Shown here: piece after piece, positions 570 to 11,039 of the stretch
Layout: each line of letters opens with the position of its first letter
Position numbering within the stretch: the first letter of the stretch is position 1
Source: an uncultured Hyphomicrobiales bacterium
GTDB taxonomy: Bacteria > Bacteroidota > Ignavibacteria > Kapaibacteriales > UBA2268
DNA: 64,000 nt
Assembly (NCBI GenBank): GCA_964473465.1
Contig: CAYYPE010000002.1
Span: 48,487 to 112,486 of the forward strand
Reading direction: 5' to 3'
Notes under the pieces: generated by a model
What the model was told of the DNA's origin: nothing
Database searches by the model: none
The model's input: the letters and a program-made list of their open reading frames with translations, nothing else
Made by a program: the position numbers and the translations under genes

Positions 570-2844
<2,275 letters not shown>

Positions 2845-2866: not shown

Positions 2867-2900
2867 AAGCCCTGATTTATCTTTTCAGGGCTTTTTTTTT
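2867..2900. terminator. Bidirectional intrinsic terminator between convergent nfnB and glnA
   Basis: AAGCCCTGA...TCAGGGCTT stem followed by a T run. Confidence 0.8.
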
Positions 2901-4446
2901 AGCATCTGTGTATGTCTCTGTGCATTATTCTGCGGGATTCAACAATTTGCTCTTCCTCAGCCATTGAAAGTAGTCTGCTGTTTAGATACCTGTCATTTTC
3001 CGATTGTAGCAACTTAGCTACATAATTTATCACCTGAGATGGGAAAATATTATCTCTTTCATACAAATCTTTTTGTTGTAAGAGCTTTTCTGAGGATTCG
3101 GCACAACTTGTTGCAAGTTCGCTGAGTTCCGAGAAATTAGGTGAACTCTGAATATTAGCCGGAACTTTGCACATTTTAGCAATATCAATTGAAGTTTTGG
3201 CGTTAGATAGTCCCCATTCGACAGCCATAGTAATTCCGGAAAGCAGTAAATGGGCGTTTGCACTTCCATCAGGACTCCTAAGCTCAACAGTCTGCCTTGA
3301 ATTTTCATAATTCAGAGGTTCTTTTTGAGCTGGATTAATTTTTTGAGCCAGATTTTTAGCCTTTGTCCATGCCAGAGGAACTCTTATTAAGGCACTACGA
3401 TTTGAATCGCTCCAGCAAACCTTTGTTGGTGCTTCCTGATTAGGAACAAGTCTAAGGTAGGAAGCAGAAACCATATTGCCAAAAGCAGTTAAGCTTGGTG
3501 CATAATGGCATAGACCCCCAATAAGTTTTAATGATTCTTCGCTTAATTCTCCTGATTCATCTGTCATGATATTTTTTCCATTTTTAAGAAGAGCCATGTG
3601 AATGTGAAGTCCGTTGCCGGCATGACCTTGCTCAAGTTTAGGAAAGAAGGTTGCTACGAAACCATGCTTATAAGCAACATTTCTTATAATCCAGCTTCCA
3701 ATCACTAAATTATCAGCCGAATCTTCAACATTTGTAGGTAAAAACTCTATTTCAACCTGCTCGGCACTTTTGCCGTTCAGTTCGGGGAAGTCGCTCTTGA
3801 CATAATCAAGGGAACCAACCTCATTGTGGGCATATTTTACATTTCCGGTTATTTGTGTCATATATTTTAGCATTTCATTAAGTATATGACCGGTTTTAGC
3901 GAATGGAGGTGAAGCATGATAGCCTTTTTGTTTCGGCAGGGCGTAAGATTTATTGTCGAAATTACCAAGAAGATAGAATTCGAGCTCTCCAAGAGTATGT
4001 AATTCATAACCATGCTTTTCAAATAATTTTTTTGCAGCCTTATGCAAAATGTTATCCGGAACAAAAGAAGCTAAATTGCCATCCCTATCGAAAAATCGGG
4101 CTACAAAATCAAGGCTTGTGTTATCGAAAGGGTTAATAAATGCGGAGCGATACAAAGGAACCACATATAAATCTGACTGTCCCACTTCCACAATACCCTT
4201 GAAAAGGGAAGAGCCATCAACTCTTTCGCCTTCGGCAAGCACCAATTCAGCCTGTAATCTGTTTGTAACAGGTATCTTTAGTTCTTTAATCTTGCCATCA
4301 ATTCCTGTATAGTGTAAAGTAATTTTTTCTATGTTTTTTTCAAGCATTACCTTTATTAGATCTGCCCTCGTTAAATCATTTTTATCTTTATTGGTAATAA
4401 TTGATATAGGGTTAGCTAAACTGAAAATCTCTGAGTTATTTGTCAT
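2899..4446 (-). CDS. glnA: Glutamine synthetase family protein (type I-like)
   Basis: DGSS, ELEFY, HNEVG, GNGLHIH, SYLRLVPNQEAP, NRSALIRVP and ELRSPDGSAN motifs. Confidence 0.85.
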   Translation of the reverse strand: MTNNSEIFSLANPISIITNKDKNDLTRADLIKVMLEKNIEKITLHYTGIDGKIKELKIPVTNRLQAELVLAEGERVDGSSLFKGIVEVGQSDLYVVPLYRSAFINPFDNTSLDFVARFFDRDGNLASFVPDNILHKAAKKLFEKHGYELHTLGELEFYLLGNFDNKSYALPKQKGYHASPPFAKTGHILNEMLKYMTQITGNVKYAHNEVGSLDYVKSDFPELNGKSAEQVEIEFLPTNVEDSADNLVIGSWIIRNVAYKHGFVATFFPKLEQGHAGNGLHIHMALLKNGKNIMTDESGELSEESLKLIGGLCHYAPSLTAFGNMVSASYLRLVPNQEAPTKVCWSDSNRSALIRVPLAWTKAKNLAQKINPAQKEPLNYENSRQTVELRSPDGSANAHLLLSGITMAVEWGLSNAKTSIDIAKMCKVPANIQSSPNFSELSELATSCAESSEKLLQQKDLYERDNIFPSQVINYVAKLLQSENDRYLNSRLLSMAEEEQIVESRRIMHRDIHRC

Positions 4447-4652
4447 AATATTTTAACCTCCGAATTAGGGTTTTATAAATAAAATCAAAAAAAAATGTAA
4501 TATAACACTTTTAAAAAATATGGCAATAGCTTGTTAGTGTCTTTCAATCATACTTCTTTATATTTAATTAGATTTTTGATTTATTGGAATTTTACCAAAA
4601 CGCTTAAAATTAAAATAACTCTGTCTTATTTTTTTTATTTATCGCAAATTAG

Positions 4653-4660
4653 TAATTTTG
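4653..4660 (+). promoter_or_regulatory. Bacteroidota-type -7 promoter element for the arginine catabolism operon
   Basis: TAATTTTG about 280 nt upstream of the OTC start, implying a long 5' leader. Confidence 0.45.
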
Positions 4661-4938
4661 TAATTCTTAAAAACCAAAGGGTTATAATTGAGTCAAATAA
4701 ATCAACATAGTGCTTACATAATATCTGAATCTATAAGTCGGGGAGGAAATCGAGCATTTTGTCCGGCAAAAACCCGTTCAGGTAAAATCCATCAATTCAG
4801 GCACTACACAACAGATGCCCCAGTCTAACATAAGAACCCTGAATTTCAGATTCTATATCTTTGTCTAATATCAAATTAATACATAAATTACATTCTAAAC
4901 AAACATAATTATTTAAAATTTAAATAGGTGATTTCAAT

Positions 4939-5859
4939 ATGAAAAAGGATTTTATATCTGTATCTGATTTTTCTCAGGCAGAAGTCATTGAGACATTCAA
5001 ATTAGCTATTGACATGAAGCAAAACAAAGCAAAATATAGTGAAGGATTGAAGGGCAAAGGTTTATTTATTTATTTTGAAAAAGATTCATTAAGAACAAGA
5101 GTAAGTTTTGACGTTGGCATCCACGAACTTGGTGGATTTTCGGTAGTGGTTGTTGCTGCCAATGAAAGCAGTCGAATAGGAACAAGAGAATCAATATATG
5201 ATGTAGCAAAAAATCTTGAAAGAATGGTTGGCGGAATAATGATGAGAACTTTTAGCCACTCCAAAGTTGTTGATATGGCAAAGCATGCATCAATACCAGT
5301 AATTAACGGTTTAACAGACTATTCGCATCCATGTCAGGCAATGGCTGATTATTTGACCTTTTATGAAAAAAAGGGTGAGCTAAAAGGTAAAAAATTATGC
5401 TACGTCGGTGATGGTAACAATGTTGCCCATTCTTTGATGGAAGCAGGTGCTATTCTTGGAGTAAATGTTACAATTTCAACACCCAAAGGGTATGAGCCAA
5501 ATCTGGTAGCATTCCGGGAAGCTGAAGCACTTGCAAAAGAAACCGGAGCAAAAATTGAAGTTATTCATAATCCAAAAGAAGCAATAAAAGATGCTGATGC
5601 AGTTTATACTGATGTTTGGGCTTCAATGGGACAGGAATCAGAGGCAGCAATGAGAAAGAAAATATTTGCACCATATCAGGTTAATGATGAATTGATGTCT
5701 TATGCAAAGAGTGATGCAATTTTTATGCATTGTTTACCTGCCCACAGAGGCGACGAAGTAACCGATAGCGTAATTGATTCCAAAAATTCAGTTGTCTTCG
5801 ATGAAGCTGAAAACAGGCTGCACGTTCAAAAAGCAATAATGTATCAGCTAATGAAATGA
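4939..5859 (+). CDS. arcB: Ornithine carbamoyltransferase
   Basis: FEKDSLRTRVSF carbamoyl-phosphate motif (SLRT variant), HPCQ, DVWASMGQE, FMHCLP; adjacent to carbamate kinase. Confidence 0.9.
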   Translation: MKKDFISVSDFSQAEVIETFKLAIDMKQNKAKYSEGLKGKGLFIYFEKDSLRTRVSFDVGIHELGGFSVVVVAANESSRIGTRESIYDVAKNLERMVGGIMMRTFSHSKVVDMAKHASIPVINGLTDYSHPCQAMADYLTFYEKKGELKGKKLCYVGDGNNVAHSLMEAGAILGVNVTISTPKGYEPNLVAFREAEALAKETGAKIEVIHNPKEAIKDADAVYTDVWASMGQESEAAMRKKIFAPYQVNDELMSYAKSDAIFMHCLPAHRGDEVTDSVIDSKNSVVFDEAENRLHVQKAIMYQLMK

Positions 5860-5882
5860 AAAACATTAAACAAGGTTTTTAG

Positions 5883-6824
5883 ATGAAAAAAACAGCTTTA
5901 ATTGCAATTGGTGGTAATTCTTTAATCCGTGCAGGAGAAAGAGGAACAATAGATGAGCAGCTAAACAATGCTTATGCTACCGCAAAAAGTATTGCACAAA
6001 TGGTGAAACAGGGTTGGGAATTGGTTATTACTCACGGGAACGGACCACAGGCAGGTGCCGCTCTTTTGCGCTCTGAAAGAGCTGCTTCCGAAGTTTATAC
6101 TCACACTCTCGATATGTGCGTTGCTACAACCCAGAGTGAAATTGGATATATTTTGCAGAGAGCTTTGGAATTTGAGTTCCGCAAGATTGGACTGAGCAAT
6201 TATGTAATTACTTTACCAACCATGGTGCGGGTTGATGAAAAAGATCCAGCTTTCCTGAAGCCGACAAAACCTATCGGTCCTTTCTACTCAAAAGCAGTAG
6301 CTGAAGAAAAAAAGGCTACATTAGGATGGGATATTGTTGAAGATGCTGCACGTGGCTATCGCAGGGTTGTTGCATCTCCCGAACCAATTGAGGTTCTCGA
6401 ACTTGAAGTGATTAAGAAAATTCTTGAACTGGATATTATTATTATCGCTCTTGGCGGAGGTGGAATACCTGTTATTGTTAATTCTGATGGTTCGATTACC
6501 GGGTCCGAAGCAGTAATTGACAAAGACCGTTCGTCAGCCCTCCTTGCAAAGGAATTAAACGTTGATTTGTTTATAATCAGCACTGATACTGATAAGGTTT
6601 ATCTTAATTTCAAGAAAAAGAACCATACAGGAATATCAATGGCAACAGCAGAAGAGATGCAGAAATATTACGACGAAGGACATTTTCCTGCTGGAAGTAT
6701 GGGTCCAAAGGTTGAATCTGCTATCAGATTTATAAAGAATGGCGGCAAAAAAGTTATTATTACTTCGTATGAATACTTGACTGAGGCACTTGATGAAAAG
6801 GCTGGAACTCATATTATTCCATAG
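5883..6824 (+). CDS. arcC: Carbamate kinase
   Basis: AIGGNSL, THGNGPQ, PTKPIGPF, RRVVASP, GGGGIPV, EAVIDKD, GSMGPKV. Confidence 0.95.
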   Translation: MKKTALIAIGGNSLIRAGERGTIDEQLNNAYATAKSIAQMVKQGWELVITHGNGPQAGAALLRSERAASEVYTHTLDMCVATTQSEIGYILQRALEFEFRKIGLSNYVITLPTMVRVDEKDPAFLKPTKPIGPFYSKAVAEEKKATLGWDIVEDAARGYRRVVASPEPIEVLELEVIKKILELDIIIIALGGGGIPVIVNSDGSITGSEAVIDKDRSSALLAKELNVDLFIISTDTDKVYLNFKKKNHTGISMATAEEMQKYYDEGHFPAGSMGPKVESAIRFIKNGGKKVIITSYEYLTEALDEKAGTHIIP

Positions 6825-6883
6825 ATACAGTATGATCTGTCTAAAAATATTGATAATAATTTGAATAACAAATAGAGGAAGAT

Positions 6884-7807
6884 ATGTTACTCGATCATGT
6901 TATATTTTCTCAGCAGTTCACTGTTCCAATTCTAATGGAACTTTTCAACAGGACTGACCATATGAGAAAGATTGTGCAAAGGGGTGGAACGCTCGATTAT
7001 CAGAAAAAAATTATGGCAACCCTTTTCTATGCTCCTTCCACAAGAACAAGGTTTTCATTCGAAGCTGCAATGTATCGTCTCGGGGGTAATGTCCTTTCAA
7101 CAGAACAGGCAAAAATGTTCTCTTCAGAAATTAAGGGTGAAATGCTCGAAGATACAATACGTATAATCGCAAACTATTGCGATATCATTGTCATTCGACA
7201 TCACGAGGAAGGCGGTGCAAAGCGGGCTGCCGATGTTTCACCTATTCCTGTAATTAATGCCGGTGACGGTTCTGGTGGTCAGCATCCAACTCAGGCTCTT
7301 CTGGATCTTTACACTATTTATAATGAATGCAAAACGTTAGACGGACTATCAGTTGCCATAATCGGGGCATTGGACAAAGGCAGAACTGCACGATCTCTTG
7401 CTTATCTGCTAAGCAAATTTGAACGAACAAAAATTTACTTTATCGCTCCTCAGGAAATGCAAATACAACCTGATATTCTCGAACATCTCGAAGAAAAAGG
7501 TATTTCCTATGAACTTTCATCTACCACCGAAAATATTATCAATAAAGTTGATGTGGTTTACCAAACCAGAATAGATAAAGACCGACTGCGAGGAAAAGAA
7601 ATTGACCTTTCTATTTATAATATTGATCAGAATGTTCTCAAAAGGATGAAAAAGAATGCAATTATTCTTCATCCCCTTCCACGTTCAGTCGAAATCAGTC
7701 ATGATGTTGATTCTGACAAGCGTGCTGCTTATTTCCGTCAATCAGAAAATGGACTCTATGTCAGAATGGCCCTTATTTCTATGTTGCTGGATAAAAATGA
7801 AAAATAA
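6884..7807 (+). CDS. pyrB: Aspartate carbamoyltransferase-like catalytic chain (variant motifs)
   Basis: PSTRTRFSF, KGEMLEDT, INAGDG, HPTQALLD, GRTARSL and HPLPR; no pyrI nearby. Confidence 0.8.
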   Translation: MLLDHVIFSQQFTVPILMELFNRTDHMRKIVQRGGTLDYQKKIMATLFYAPSTRTRFSFEAAMYRLGGNVLSTEQAKMFSSEIKGEMLEDTIRIIANYCDIIVIRHHEEGGAKRAADVSPIPVINAGDGSGGQHPTQALLDLYTIYNECKTLDGLSVAIIGALDKGRTARSLAYLLSKFERTKIYFIAPQEMQIQPDILEHLEEKGISYELSSTTENIINKVDVVYQTRIDKDRLRGKEIDLSIYNIDQNVLKRMKKNAIILHPLPRSVEISHDVDSDKRAAYFRQSENGLYVRMALISMLLDKNEK

Positions 7808-7838
7808 ATTTTAAAAAAAGAAAAAAAAGGAAACAAAT

Positions 7839-9035
7839 ATGAACTCAAAAGATTTTATTACTTTAGAAGAACAATATGGCGCTCATAACTATCATCCTCT
7901 GGATGTAGTTGTTCACGAAGCCAAAGGTTGCTGGGTTACAGACGTCGAAGGAAAAAGATATTTAGATTGTTTGGCAGCCTATTCAGCTGTTAATCAGGGG
8001 CACTGCCATCCAAAAATTCTGGAGGTTTTCATCGAGCAGGCTCACCTTGTAACTTTGACGAGTCGAGCTTTCAGAAACGACAAACTTCCTTTGCTCTACA
8101 AAAAATTACATGATATGACCGGCTATGATATGTCCCTACCAATGAATTCAGGGGCTGAGGCAGTCGAAACAGCTATTAAAACAGCTCGCCGATGGGGATA
8201 TGACGTAAAGGGAATTGAAAAAGACAAGGCTGAAATTATCGTAGCAACAGGCAATTTTCATGGAAGAACAACGACAATTGTAGGTTTTTCCGATGACCCG
8301 GCTTCTTACGGTGGATTTGGACCGTTCACTCCCGGATTTGTATTCCATGAATATGGTAATGCAGAAGACCTAAAGAGCAAAATCACAAAAAATACTTGTG
8401 CAGTGCTAATCGAGCCAATTCAGGGCGAGGGTGGAATTGTTATACCGCCTGAGGGATATTTGAAGCAAGTCGAAACAATCTGCCGTGAAAACAATGTCTT
8501 GTTAGTGATGGATGAAATCCAGGCAGGATTAGGAAGGAGCGGAAAACTGTTTGCTCATTACTATGAAAATGTTCGCCCGGATATAGTTATAATCGGAAAA
8601 GCACTCTCCGGTGGATTTTATCCTGTATCTGCTATTTTAGCAGACAAAGAAATCCTTGGAGTAATAAAGCCCGGTCAACATGGTTCTACTTTCGGTGGCA
8701 ATCCTCTTGCCGCAGCTGTCGCAGTCAGATCTCTTGAAGTAATTGAGGAAGAAAACCTTATTCAACGATCATTTGAACTTGGTGAATACTTTATGCAAAA
8801 GCTCAGAGAAATTGAAAGTCCTCATATTAAACTTGTTAGAGGTAAGGGACTTTGGATTGGTTTTGTGCTCGATACAAAGGCAAGGCCATATTGCGAAAAA
8901 CTGATGGGCGAAGGAATCCTTTGCAAGGAAACCCACGATAACATCATTAGATTTGCCCCTCCATTAGTAATCACAAAAGAAGAAATTGACTGGGCGGTAG
9001 AAAGAATCGAAAAAGTTGTAAAATCATTAGATTAA
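7839..9035 (+). CDS. rocD: Ornithine--oxo-acid transaminase
   Basis: YGAHNYHPL, YSAVNQGHCHP, NSGAEAVE, FHGRT, EPIQGEGG, DEIQAG, GKALSGG (PLP lysine), HGSTFGGNPL. Confidence 0.92.
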   Translation: MNSKDFITLEEQYGAHNYHPLDVVVHEAKGCWVTDVEGKRYLDCLAAYSAVNQGHCHPKILEVFIEQAHLVTLTSRAFRNDKLPLLYKKLHDMTGYDMSLPMNSGAEAVETAIKTARRWGYDVKGIEKDKAEIIVATGNFHGRTTTIVGFSDDPASYGGFGPFTPGFVFHEYGNAEDLKSKITKNTCAVLIEPIQGEGGIVIPPEGYLKQVETICRENNVLLVMDEIQAGLGRSGKLFAHYYENVRPDIVIIGKALSGGFYPVSAILADKEILGVIKPGQHGSTFGGNPLAAAVAVRSLEVIEEENLIQRSFELGEYFMQKLREIESPHIKLVRGKGLWIGFVLDTKARPYCEKLMGEGILCKETHDNIIRFAPPLVITKEEIDWAVERIEKVVKSLD

Positions 9036-9230
9036 AATTCTTTATGGATATCAATTATAGATATAATGAGGTGTCTTTTCTTGCCGATCCATAAGGTTCA
9101 TTAACTGAAGAATTGCATCTTGTAAGTCTTTTAAATTTATTTTTCGGTTTTTTTATATCTTACAGACAAAAGTAACATAATAAATGAAATCAATCAAAAT
9201 AAATAGTATTATTAATAATTAGGATTTAAT

Positions 9231-10553
9231 ATGTCAGAAAAAAAAGTTCGTGCAATAATTATCGGAGCAGCCGGTAGAGATTTTCATAATTTTAATGTGA
9301 TATTCAGGAATAATCCTGACTACGAGATTGTTGCCTTTACGGCAGCACAGATTCCTGATATTGAAGGCAGGATGTATCCCCCTTCCCTTGCCGGAGAATA
9401 CTATCCAAATGGAATTCCCATCTATGGGGAAGAAGAATTGCCAGAATTAATTAAACAACATAATGTTGATGAATGTATCTTATCATATTCAGACCTGTCT
9501 TATGATACTGTGATGCATATAGGATCAACTGTCATTTCTTCTGGTGCCAAATTTTCTATGCTCGGCTCCTATCCAACAATGATAAAATCATCAAAACCAG
9601 TTATATCAATAACAGCGGTAAGAACAGGATGCGGAAAGAGTCAGACTACAAGGGCAGTCGTCAAGGCTTTACTCGAAGCAGGTAAAAAAGTTGTTTCCGT
9701 TCGTCATCCTATGCCATACGGCGATCTTGAAAAAATGAAAGTGCAGAGATTTGCAGAGATAGCTGACCTTGACAGACATAATTGCACAATCGAAGAGATG
9801 GAAGAATACGAACCACATATTGCTATGGGTAGTGTAATTTATTCTGGTGTTGATTACGAAGCAATTTTGCGAGAAGCTGAAAAAGAAGCTGATGTCATTG
9901 TCTGGGATGGCGGAAATAACGATATGCCATTTTATAAACCTGATTTATCAATCGTTGTCGCAGATCCTTTGAGACCCGGTCACGAGATAAGCTATTATCC
10001 CGGAGAGGTAAATCTCAGAATGGCAGATGTTGTTGTCATAAATAAAGTGGATTCAGCCTATCCTGAGGATGTTGAAATGGTCCTTGAAAACATACGGGAA
10101 TATAACCCAAATGCTCAGGTGATTTTGGCAGCTTCAGCAATTATGGTCGAAGATCCATCAATCATCACTGGTAAACGTGTTCTGGTTATCGAGGATGGTC
10201 CTACTTTAACTCATGGCGAAATGTCAATCGGAGCCGGCGTTGTTGCTGCAAGAAGGTTTGGTGCAATTGAATTGGTTGATCCCAGACCTTATATAGTTGG
10301 TAAAATTCAGGACACATTCGATACTTACCCCGAAATCGGGACTTTACTTCCAGCAATGGGCTATGGCGAACAGCAGATGAAAGATTTGGAGGCTTCAATT
10401 GCCAATACTGATTGCGATTCTGTTGTTATTGGCACTCCAATCAATTTAGGGAGGTTCATCAAAATCAAACAGCCAAATACCAGAGTGTTTTATGAACTTG
10501 CCGAAATAGGATTGCCAAATATTAAGTCAATCTTGAGAAGATTCATAGACTAA
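9231..10553 (+). CDS. arcE: P-loop protein of the cPG-synthetase-like family; probable arginine synthetase (ArcE)
   Basis: N-terminal GAAGRDFHNFN...AFTAAQIPDIEGR, P-loop AVRTGCGKS, RHPMPYG, EEYEPH, WDGGNND, EDGPTLTHG; operonic with OTC and carbamate kinase. Confidence 0.8.
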   Translation: MSEKKVRAIIIGAAGRDFHNFNVIFRNNPDYEIVAFTAAQIPDIEGRMYPPSLAGEYYPNGIPIYGEEELPELIKQHNVDECILSYSDLSYDTVMHIGSTVISSGAKFSMLGSYPTMIKSSKPVISITAVRTGCGKSQTTRAVVKALLEAGKKVVSVRHPMPYGDLEKMKVQRFAEIADLDRHNCTIEEMEEYEPHIAMGSVIYSGVDYEAILREAEKEADVIVWDGGNNDMPFYKPDLSIVVADPLRPGHEISYYPGEVNLRMADVVVINKVDSAYPEDVEMVLENIREYNPNAQVILAASAIMVEDPSIITGKRVLVIEDGPTLTHGEMSIGAGVVAARRFGAIELVDPRPYIVGKIQDTFDTYPEIGTLLPAMGYGEQQMKDLEASIANTDCDSVVIGTPINLGRFIKIKQPNTRVFYELAEIGLPNIKSILRRFID

Positions 10554-10576
10554 AAAGATTTTTCATAAATTTTTCC

Positions 10577-10613
10577 GTTCTGTCGGCTATTATTGCCGGC
10601 AGAACTTTTTTTT
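10577..10613 (+). terminator. Intrinsic terminator of the arc operon
   Basis: GTTCTGTCGGC / GCCGGCAGAAC stem followed by 8 T. Confidence 0.8.
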
Positions 10614-10733
10614 ACAAAAATTAAGAAAATTAGAATATGAGAAATGGAAAGATTTTTAGATTTCTAAATACTAAAATTAATATAAATAATTTTAAACTCA
10701 GTTGAGTTTAATCCCATAATGAAACAAAAAAAA

Positions 10734-11039
10734 CTAAGTAGTTGTTTTTGTTTCGGTAGCTGGTTTTGAATCTTGCTTATTAACTGTTTTTGAATGCTCA
10801 GAAGAGCCATTAGTCTTTGGAGAACTATTATTTTTATGAACATAGTCAGTGAGGTAGAACCCTGAACCTTTGAAAACCAGTCCAATATTTTTACTTATGA
10901 GTCTTTCAACCTTCCCCTGACCCTTAGCTTCCTGTTCACATATTTCGGGGGGGCAATGCTCAAGAGCATTTTCTGTTATTCTTTGCTGATATTCAAATTC
11001 TTTACCGCAAGTCAAACATTTATAATCATAAACCGGCAT
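10734..11039 (-). CDS. FmdB-family zinc-ribbon protein
   Basis: MPVYDYKCLTCG...CPPEIC...FKGSGFYLTDY; start placed at the ATG of MPVYDY. Confidence 0.85.
   Translation of the reverse strand: MPVYDYKCLTCGKEFEYQQRITENALEHCPPEICEQEAKGQGKVERLISKNIGLVFKGSGFYLTDYVHKNNSSPKTNGSSEHSKTVNKQDSKPATETKTTT

Follow-up and report, generated by a model that had tools for sequence, protein, structure and literature searches.

An aspartate carbamoyltransferase-like protein encoded beside carbamate kinase in ArcE-type arginine operons

Carbamoyl phosphate (CP) is a labile, reactive intermediate. In Pyrococcus furiosus, carbamate kinase (CK) and ornithine carbamoyltransferase (OTC) channel it through physical contact, and in Pseudomonas an inactive dihydroorotase, PyrC′, is the partner of aspartate carbamoyltransferase (ATCase); to our knowledge, no partnership between an ATCase-fold protein and CK has been described. 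Here, we analyse a candidate for such a partnership, the 307-amino-acid (aa) ATCase-fold paralogue encoded at positions 6884..7807 (+ strand) of a 64,000-nt stretch of contig CAYYPE010000002.1 (the window). The gene, called ATCl (ATCase-like) throughout, is the third of a co-directional five-gene block.

Two bodies of earlier work bear directly on this locus. In the paper on the arginine synthetase pathway, ArcE of Thermococcus kodakarensis is described as an ATP-forming arginine deiminase ('arginine synthetase') that had been annotated as a putative GTPase; some genomes encode it close to arcB/arcC, and it is found widely among bacteria (PMC11032458). Biochemical characterization is limited to TK2200 of T. 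kodakarensis, which catalyses Arg + ADP + Pi <-> citrulline + NH3 + ATP (PMC11032458). A later paper showed genetically that ArcE and ArcB supply the CP for pyrimidine synthesis in the same organism (PMC13260591). On the side of the ATCases, an RxQxER motif in the 240s loop has been stated for all known members, where R229 and Q231 anchor the beta-carboxylate of aspartate (PMC4581275).

As judged from its residues and its position in trees, ATCl is a member of a distinct, strongly conserved superclade derived from ATCases, and it is securely not the housekeeping ATCase of pyrimidine synthesis. It is, moreover, an accessory gene of an ArcE-type arginine pathway (Arg -> citrulline -> ornithine + CP -> ATP). 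Our tentative reading of its function, held with somewhat less than even confidence, is that ATCl is a CK-coupled, CP-binding accessory protein.

Residues and phylogeny of the ATCl superclade

ATCl carries both Pfam halves of the fold, OTCace_N (E 4e-40) and OTCace (E 4e-32), and scores 305.7 bits on the NCBIfam model TIGR00670 (aspartate carbamoyltransferase; cut-off 236.95). Its CP site is complete (S52, T53, R54, T55, R105, H134, Q137 and HPLP), and R167 and R229 are also present. These features are those expected of a PyrB, but the RxQxER motif reads RIDKDR and the Lys84/Asp162 pair is broken. In particular, ATCl has FYAPSTRT at residues 48-55 and TRIDKDR at residues 228-234, which alignment to E. 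coli PyrB from NC_000913 shows to be E50A, Q231D and E233D; D162A is a further change, and Lys84 is retained in this protein. An earlier note on this DNA had pointed out both motifs, and translation and alignment confirm them; D162A is an extra change absent from its list. Its description of FYAPSTRT as unusual holds for the Glu-to-Ala change alone, because FYEPSTRT is common among type-II ATCases (Arabidopsis PYRB and most type-II representatives have it), which makes the 'FY' ordinary. Read from this alignment, ATCl securely lacks the motif that defines the aspartate site.

The changes are far from chance. Two sets were compared: 131 unselected representatives of 50%-identity clusters, and 121 sequences consisting of ATCl and its 120 best database relatives (72-99% identity), which come from Kapaibacteria and Ignavibacteria metagenome bins and, where named, are all called 'aspartate carbamoyltransferase'. 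E50 is found in 115 of the 131 representatives and in none of the ATCl set; D162 falls from 127/131 to 0/121, with Ala in 117 of the 121, and Q231 from 121/131 to 3/121, with Asp in 101. K84 is present in 124 representatives and in 51 of the ATCl set. The earlier note had said that its proposal would fall if these substitutions were common in validated ATCases; among the 131 unselected ATCase representatives, an acidic residue at 231, or Ala at 162, is seen in at most one. In contrast to the aspartate site, the CP-site residues, R167 and R229 are invariant or nearly so across the 121 sequences (L267 in 119/121), whose mean pairwise identity is 76%. Position 50 varies among K, A, R, S, Q and N and is never Glu (n = 121), position 84 is K (42%), E (36%) or Q (9%), and position 233 is E, D, N, A or G. 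A strict charge swap between positions 50 and 84 (A50/K84 versus K50/E84) was considered and accounts for the pattern only in part, as about 19 of the 121 have neither Lys nor Arg at either position.

The carbamoyltransferase phylogeny that had been proposed as a check places ATCl in a monophyletic side-branch inside the type-II ATCases (SH-aLRT 86-92 in the trees), which divides into three subclades. The whole superclade is marked by Tyr39, an inserted RGGTxDY loop at residues 33-39, an extra Gly131 in the 130s loop and R181, all rare or absent in canonical ATCases. In the E. coli enzyme, the interface of the catalytic trimer includes residues 37-41 (PMC6056424). Residue 231 is acidic (Asp or Glu) in 105 of 121 sequences of subclade A, in 84 of 84 of subclade B and in 28 of 28 of subclade C. 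ATCl has all of these marks, the acidic 231 included, and lies downstream of a CK of the corresponding lineage (lineage 2).

Subclade A, to which ATCl of the window belongs, is characterized by A162, D231, E82 and D164 and by the gene order arcB-arcC-ATCl-(rocD)-arcE; its own invariant residues, in the numbering of the window protein, are E82, D164, S268 and N246. Subclade B has E50, N162 and E231, with Met, Leu, Tyr, Ala or similar and never Lys at position 84, and is found in arcE-arcB-arcC-ATCl operons. Subclade C, nested in B with a support of 98, has lost the phosphate site and occurs in purine clusters with YgeW. Its 28 sequences (mean pairwise identity 75%) carry R54->L and S80->F without exception and K84->P in 24; they retain T55, R105, H134, Q137, R167 and the acidic 231, with R229 and H265 relaxed, and their branch lengths are ordinary (stem 0.09, tips 0.06-0.19).

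The purine clusters came to light through two genomes of the class that have an ATCl relative (53-54% identity) without arcE. In one of them, G146, the order is YgeW, a pyridoxal-phosphate (PLP) enzyme, YgeY, CK, ATCl and MocA, flanked by xanthine-dehydrogenase subunits, with no OTC or ArcE; two further public contigs have the same arrangement, with CK/ATCl overlaps of 11 and 23 bases. In the reductive uric-acid pathway, YgeW releases CP by phosphorolysis and CK forms ATP from it (bioRxiv 10.1101/2025.05.19.654654). Subclade C is thus kept under constraint right after CK without the residues that hold the phosphate of CP, which implies that the function shared by the superclade survives the loss of phosphorolysis chemistry. 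As a side observation, the loci G146 L121:4629-18960 and L125:469-8924 represent a reductive uric-acid cluster of the Ignavibacteria class in which YgeX is replaced by a PLP enzyme of 482-484 aa that is cysteine-synthase-like and far below cut-off.

Carbamoyl-phosphate supply and the second pyrB

The source assembly (3.1 Mb, 42 contigs, 98.8% complete) contains a canonical pyrB at G000:C5:20856-21737, with FFEPSTRT, K84, D162 and RLQNER, a PRK00856 score of 357.8 bits and 32% identity to ATCl; ATCl is therefore not the only pyrB in its genome; the earlier note had counted a sole copy among the outcomes that would refute its proposal. No arginine deiminase (PF02274), carB or argG was found in this nearly complete genome, but pyrC, pyrD and pyrF are present, so that CP probably comes from arginine. 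Judged by its gene content, the organism is probably an arginine auxotroph that draws all of its CP from arginine via ArcE and OTC, and the ArcE-type pathway is likely its only CP source. The idea of arginine-derived CP, on which the earlier note had built its ATCase option, is well supported for this genome, and its description of the locus as an arginine catabolic operon was right, with the refinement that the operon is of the ArcE (arginine synthetase) type: homologues of arcB, arcC and arcE stand together, arginine deiminase is missing, and the block is kept in relatives. Nor does pyrI or pyrC adjoin ATCl, just as had been stated; its neighbours encode OTC, CK, an ornithine aminotransferase and the ArcE-like protein, and pyrC lies on contig C5.

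A second ATCase-family gene is found throughout the ATCl-bearing genomes. Like ATCl's own genome, each of the 19 ATCl-bearing relatives from the same family has a canonical-type pyrB match, and each of 15 further ATCl-bearing genomes from a 401-genome phylum sample has at least one second ATCase-family match (E <= 1e-17); in five of these 15, the listed second match is of the canonical type (38-39% identical). Overall, all 35 ATCl-bearing genomes examined have either a canonical-type pyrB or a second ATCase-family match, and ATCl is thus neither a sole-copy ATCase nor in a pyr-gene context.

The distribution of carB follows a different gene. At the family level, all five genomes without the module carry carB, carB is missing from 11 of the 19 module-bearing relatives and from ATCl's own genome, and no genome lacks both. 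In a class sample of 151 genomes, arcE was found in 91, and ATCl in 36 of those 91. By a plain count of related genomes, with no statistical test, arcE is present in 16 of 17 carB-less genomes versus 75 of 134 carB-bearing ones, a bacterial parallel to the archaeal (Thermococcales) finding that arginine replaces carbamoyl-phosphate synthetase. The 16 carB-less genomes with arcE comprise three with ATCl, five with a near-canonical ATCase beside CK and OTC (family f71) and eight with neither; arcE rather than ATCl is the gene that accompanies carB loss. ATCl as the enabler of carB loss was ruled out, as seven genomes of family f70 and G127 have arcE but neither carB nor ATCl.

True ATCases linked to arginine genes occur in sister families. 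Genomes G292 (L118:8593-11001), G454, G460, G466, G472, G490 and G526 of family f22 encode, directly downstream of arcE, a type-II ATCase that is near-canonical (K84, D162, R229 and Q231 kept; E50Q and R234Y); G292, which is 99% complete, has no other ATCase-family match at E <= 1e-17. CK is absent from both f22 genomes tested (G292 and G454), and the arrangement suggests that the ArcE route of this family serves CP supply rather than ATP formation. In family f71, CK, OTC and a near-canonical ATCase (358 aa, TIGR00670 260 bits) follow one another ahead of fab genes (G484, L158:5988-9041), and all five genomes carrying this ATCase lack carB; from its gene content, the trio forms a compact unit that would make carbamoyl-aspartate from citrulline-derived CP. 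The arc-linked ATCases of both families keep K84, D162, R229 and Q231 and form a clade that is separate from ATCl and not its sister. A descent of ATCl from them was considered and set aside, as the tree lacks support for it and places them as a separate long-branched clade in an unresolved polytomy.

Carbamate kinase linkage and candidate functions

The gene immediately ahead of ATCl encodes CK in 36 of 45 public loci (at least 57% identity) and in 11 of 15 loci from relatives, and the same order is found in loci of subclades B and C. The gap between the CK stop and the ATCl start has a median of about 35 bases, and in eight of 48 pairs the two genes have an ATGA-type overlap; in the window, ATCl starts 59 bases past the CK stop, and a GGAG-like ribosome-binding site, AGAGGAAG, precedes its ATG. 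The link extends to the descent of the kinases. The CK tree has two deep lineages, separated with 100% support: one contains all 30 ATCl-linked CKs, and the other holds 19 CKs from arcE-arcC-arcB operons without ATCl; the CKs of such operons are 43-46% identical to the window CK. The CKs that accompany ATCl in purine clusters branch from within the ATCl-linked lineage, which suggests that the pair moved there as a unit. Seven CKs of this lineage have no adjacent ATCl. One of the genomes concerned, G123, which otherwise has arcE-OTC-CK, contains at L139:1197-1379 (- strand) a 61-residue ATCl remnant just downstream of CK, 46% identical to residues 243-303, which is a recent loss of the gene. 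The lineage members without ATCl and this remnant together indicate that ATCl is accessory and has been lost repeatedly.

Structure prediction of a CK-ATCl complex gave a score of 0.48, compared with 0.00 for the best of three controls. In the calibration, 58 of 80 solved complexes and 2 of 110 mismatched pairs attained the mark. At least 94% of contacts are common to the runs, with a partner pLDDT of at least 85. These predictions lend weak support to a contact between the two proteins.

If ATCl is coupled to CK, CP would be held in its preserved site, and contact with CK would let ATCl control or channel how much CP goes to ATP formation by CK and how much to anabolic users, the canonical PyrB among them; carbamoyl transfer would not be its selected function, or not its only one. 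This role is favoured because CK is the one constant partner across three subclades and two pathways, because the pair is often translationally coupled and ATCl travels with its CK lineage, and because the canonical acceptor positions drift and subclade C persists without phosphorolysis chemistry. It is also favoured because the pair occurs in YgeW clusters without OTC or ArcE, where YgeW makes the CP, and because ATCl is not redundant with pyrB, given the second ATCase-family gene in every genome examined. Several findings weigh against it. Subclades A and B keep the catalytic and CP-site residues, R167, R229 and HPLP invariant or nearly so, as an active transferase would; R229 and H265 relax in the phosphate-site-less subclade C, which implies a function-linked constraint on both in A and B; and residue 231, acidic in about 90% of the superclade, resembles a conserved ligand contact. 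The variability of K84 is no proof of inactivity, because the equivalent residue varies among genuine OTCases (PMC4581275). Moreover, ATCl is dispensable, as its presence in only part of the arcE-bearing class sample and the G123 remnant show, and in 6 of 45 loci it stands alone among unrelated genes; the neighbours of these six, which are housekeeping or signalling genes (a Cache-domain protein, valyl-tRNA synthetase, OmpA, one PNP/UDP phosphorylase and GNAT), pointed to no substrate. Calibration also marks the complex prediction as weak, since only 7 of the 80 solved complexes, but both of the mismatches, attained the mark with a score of 0.60 or under, and no experiment on any superclade member was found in the literature.

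The same conserved residues admit another explanation, which is possible though on balance doubtful: ATCl may be an active carbamoyltransferase with an acceptor other than aspartate, either phosphorolysing an N-carbamoyl compound to feed CK with extra CP or carbamoylating an amine. The near-invariance of the CP site, R167, T168, R229 and HPLP in the 121 sequences of subclade A and the 84 of subclade B, the acidic residue 231 of all three subclades and the invariant residues peculiar to subclade A would all be expected of such an enzyme, and its place right after CK suits a second CP-producing step. Precedent exists in the CK-adjacent 'pseudo-ATCases', which include the allantoate-cleaving ureidoglycine carbamoyltransferase (UGTCase; PMC4016543). 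The combination of an acidic 231 with R167 and R229 suggests an alpha-amino acid acceptor whose side chain is cationic or donates hydrogen bonds, such as 2,3-diaminopropionate, 2,4-diaminobutyrate, ornithine or asparagine. However, the operon conserves no candidate gene for substrate supply or product use beyond the arginine enzymes, subclade A does not hold positions 50, 84 and 233 of the acceptor pocket constant, and the nested subclade C is still CK-linked after losing R54, S80 and K84, which leaves no phosphorolysis there. A second ureido substrate from ArcE is not expected either, because T. kodakarensis ArcE is specific for L-arginine (PMC11032458).

That ATCl is instead a genuine, unregulated ATCase capturing arginine-derived CP for pyrimidines, the non-cooperative ATCase of the earlier note, is improbable. 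It would agree with the TIGR00670 score above cut-off, with a genome that lacks carB yet has pyrC, pyrD and pyrF, with the supply of pyrimidine CP by ArcE and ArcB in T. kodakarensis (PMC13260591) and with the ATCases that adjoin arcE in f22 or CK-OTC in f71, one of them the sole ATCase-family match of its genome. Yet D162A and Q231D remove near-universal ATCase residues, including part of a motif reported in all known ATCases (PMC4581275), and K84 is missing in 58% of the clade; a canonical-type pyrB or second ATCase-family match is kept in 35 of 35 genomes, 8 of the 16 carB-less genomes with arcE manage without ATCl, and the arc-linked ATCases of f22 and f71 belong to a clade that is not its sister. 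Far less probable still is a decaying, functionless duplicate of an arc-linked pyrB: repeated loss, seen in the patchy occurrence of ATCl and in the 61-aa remnant after CK, is what such a gene would show, but 70-99% amino-acid identity across genera and families, intact reading frames, the invariant CP site and the superclade's own invariant RGGTxDY, Gly131 insertion and R181 all argue against decay.

The operon and its comparison with known systems

The five-gene block opens, in the window as in relatives' loci, with arcB, encoding a 306-aa OTC (4939..5859, + strand; TIGR00658 397.9 bits, cut-off 280.85; PRK00779 424 bits). It is followed by arcC, encoding the 313-aa CK (5883..6824, +; TIGR00746 359.5 bits, cut-off 358.25), by ATCl itself, and by a rocD-type ornithine--oxo-acid aminotransferase of 398 aa (7839..9035, +; TIGR01885 549.9 bits, cut-off 378.4), which comes next after ATCl in most subclade-A loci. 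The last gene (9231..10553, +) encodes a 440-aa protein that we assign to the ArcE type (arginine synthetase family) from family names, relatives and gene context. Pfam and NCBIfam give it only a weak cobW P-loop match, and its match to cyclic 2,3-diphosphoglycerate synthetase structures is weak; its Kapaibacteria relatives are 75-99% identical. Database entries name it 'predicted GTPase' or 'cyclic 2,3-diphosphoglycerate synthase', and atlas clusters 'putative GTPase'. The protein thus appears to be of the ArcE type, matching the description of ArcE, and it is equated with TK2200 through family names and context rather than direct alignment. An intrinsic-terminator-like hairpin at 10577..10605 (+), with an 11-bp stem, 7 G-C pairs and a T run, ends the operon and is the sole strong terminator-like site on the + strand from 4400 to 10800.

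Upstream, a glutamine-synthetase-like gene (515 aa, 2899-4446, - strand; GlnA model TIGR00653 231.7 bits, cut-off 429) diverges from the operon, and it is found in the same place in relatives L025, L027, L028, L035, L038, L039 and L082 (61-92% identity); it may encode a gamma-glutamyl ligase of another specificity, tied to the nitrogen that the pathway releases. The intergenic region between it and the OTC gene (4447-4938) is unusually long, about 490 bases, and AT-rich, with no Rfam match; an Rfam scan of the window returned one tRNA only and no riboswitch ahead of the operon. Further upstream, a gene pair at 570-2844 (+) encodes a sulfide/dihydroorotate-dehydrogenase-like FAD/NAD protein (PRK06222, 416 bits) and a GltA-type NADPH-dependent glutamate synthase (TIGR01316, 617 bits), which looks like an NfnAB/SudAB-like module and is kept beside the operon in the same genus only (L035, L038).

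No paper describing the ATCl paralogue was found in the literature. What is new here is the relation of ATCl, as an accessory, to arcE and carB, its restriction to one CK lineage, the phosphate-site-less subclade of the purine clusters, the arc-linked canonical ATCases of f22 and f71, and a weak complex prediction. The hundreds of superclade proteins named 'aspartate carbamoyltransferase' in public databases are very probably misnamed, which would mislead metabolic reconstructions of Ignavibacteria and Kapaibacteria, bacteria often met with in sediments and bioreactors. The first description of the arginine synthetase pathway dates from 2024, and the conserved fifth gene of its bacterial operons suggests that the partition of CP between energy and biosynthesis includes a step or control point that has gone unrecognised. 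In its boldest form, which is conceivable but rather more doubtful than certain, our proposal is that ATCl is the first known protein partner of CK: an ATCase-derived, CP-sensing pseudo-transcarbamylase that would gate the flow of CP, or channel it, to ATP production or to biosynthesis in bacteria whose CP comes entirely from arginine, with a further degenerated form doing the same job in anaerobic purine degradation. A CK partner would be a new case of an enzyme turned regulatory subunit; a transferase would add a new substrate class to a textbook fold.

Among described proteins, the pseudo-ATCases resemble ATCl in being annotated as ATCases, in coexisting with a genuine pyrB, in having an altered R230-Q232 motif and, for some, in being encoded next to CK in gene clusters for catabolism (Barba et al. 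2013, PMC4016543). Their three groups pair motifs at E. coli residues 265-268 and 230-232 as HPLA with AIA/AIS/SIA, H[ST]LP with GX[SC], and HSLP with VXP (PMC4016543); ATCl has HPLP and RID, none of these pairs, and membership in a known group (UGTCase or others) was ruled out. The contexts also differ, with arginine (ArcE) for ATCl and allantoin for UGTCase. The pathway itself is most like the ArcE-ArcB-ArcC system of T. kodakarensis, with which it shares clustered genes for ArcE-like protein, OTC and CK, a genome without arginine deiminase, carbamoyl-phosphate synthetase or argG, an ornithine aminotransferase, and a gene content under which arginine would have to supply the CP for pyrimidines (PMC11032458; PMC13260591). 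It differs in the fifth, ATCase-like gene after arcC, and its function here is assigned from homology and context. No ATCase-like gene in an ArcE cluster came up in the sections consulted of these two papers; a count of the phrase 'aspartate carbamoyltransferase' gave 0 for the 2024 ArcE paper (PMC11032458) and two for the 2026 paper (PMC13260591), on pyrimidine synthesis.

The closest relatives by sequence are the type-II ATCases, such as E. coli PyrB and Arabidopsis PYRB. ATCl shares with them the OTCace_N/OTCace architecture, STRTR, R105, HPTQ, HPLP, R167 and R229, is about 55% identical to the nearest canonical sequences, and finds its best solved-structure match in Arabidopsis PYRB (PDB 6ypo, 315.7 bits, reading FYEPSTRT and TRIQRER), no solved structure being closer. 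In contrast, ATCl has other residues in place of E50, D162 and Q231, its clade does not conserve K84, the 130s-loop Gly and the RGGTxDY loop are added, and its 240s loop is 4-5 residues shorter than that of Arabidopsis PYRB; it is linked to CK rather than to pyr genes and was never the sole ATCase-family gene in the genomes examined. The likeness to the PyrC′ and CK-OTC partnerships would lie in how labile CP is handled, by an altered homologue or by a contact between CK and a transcarbamylase, and for ATCl we infer such a role.

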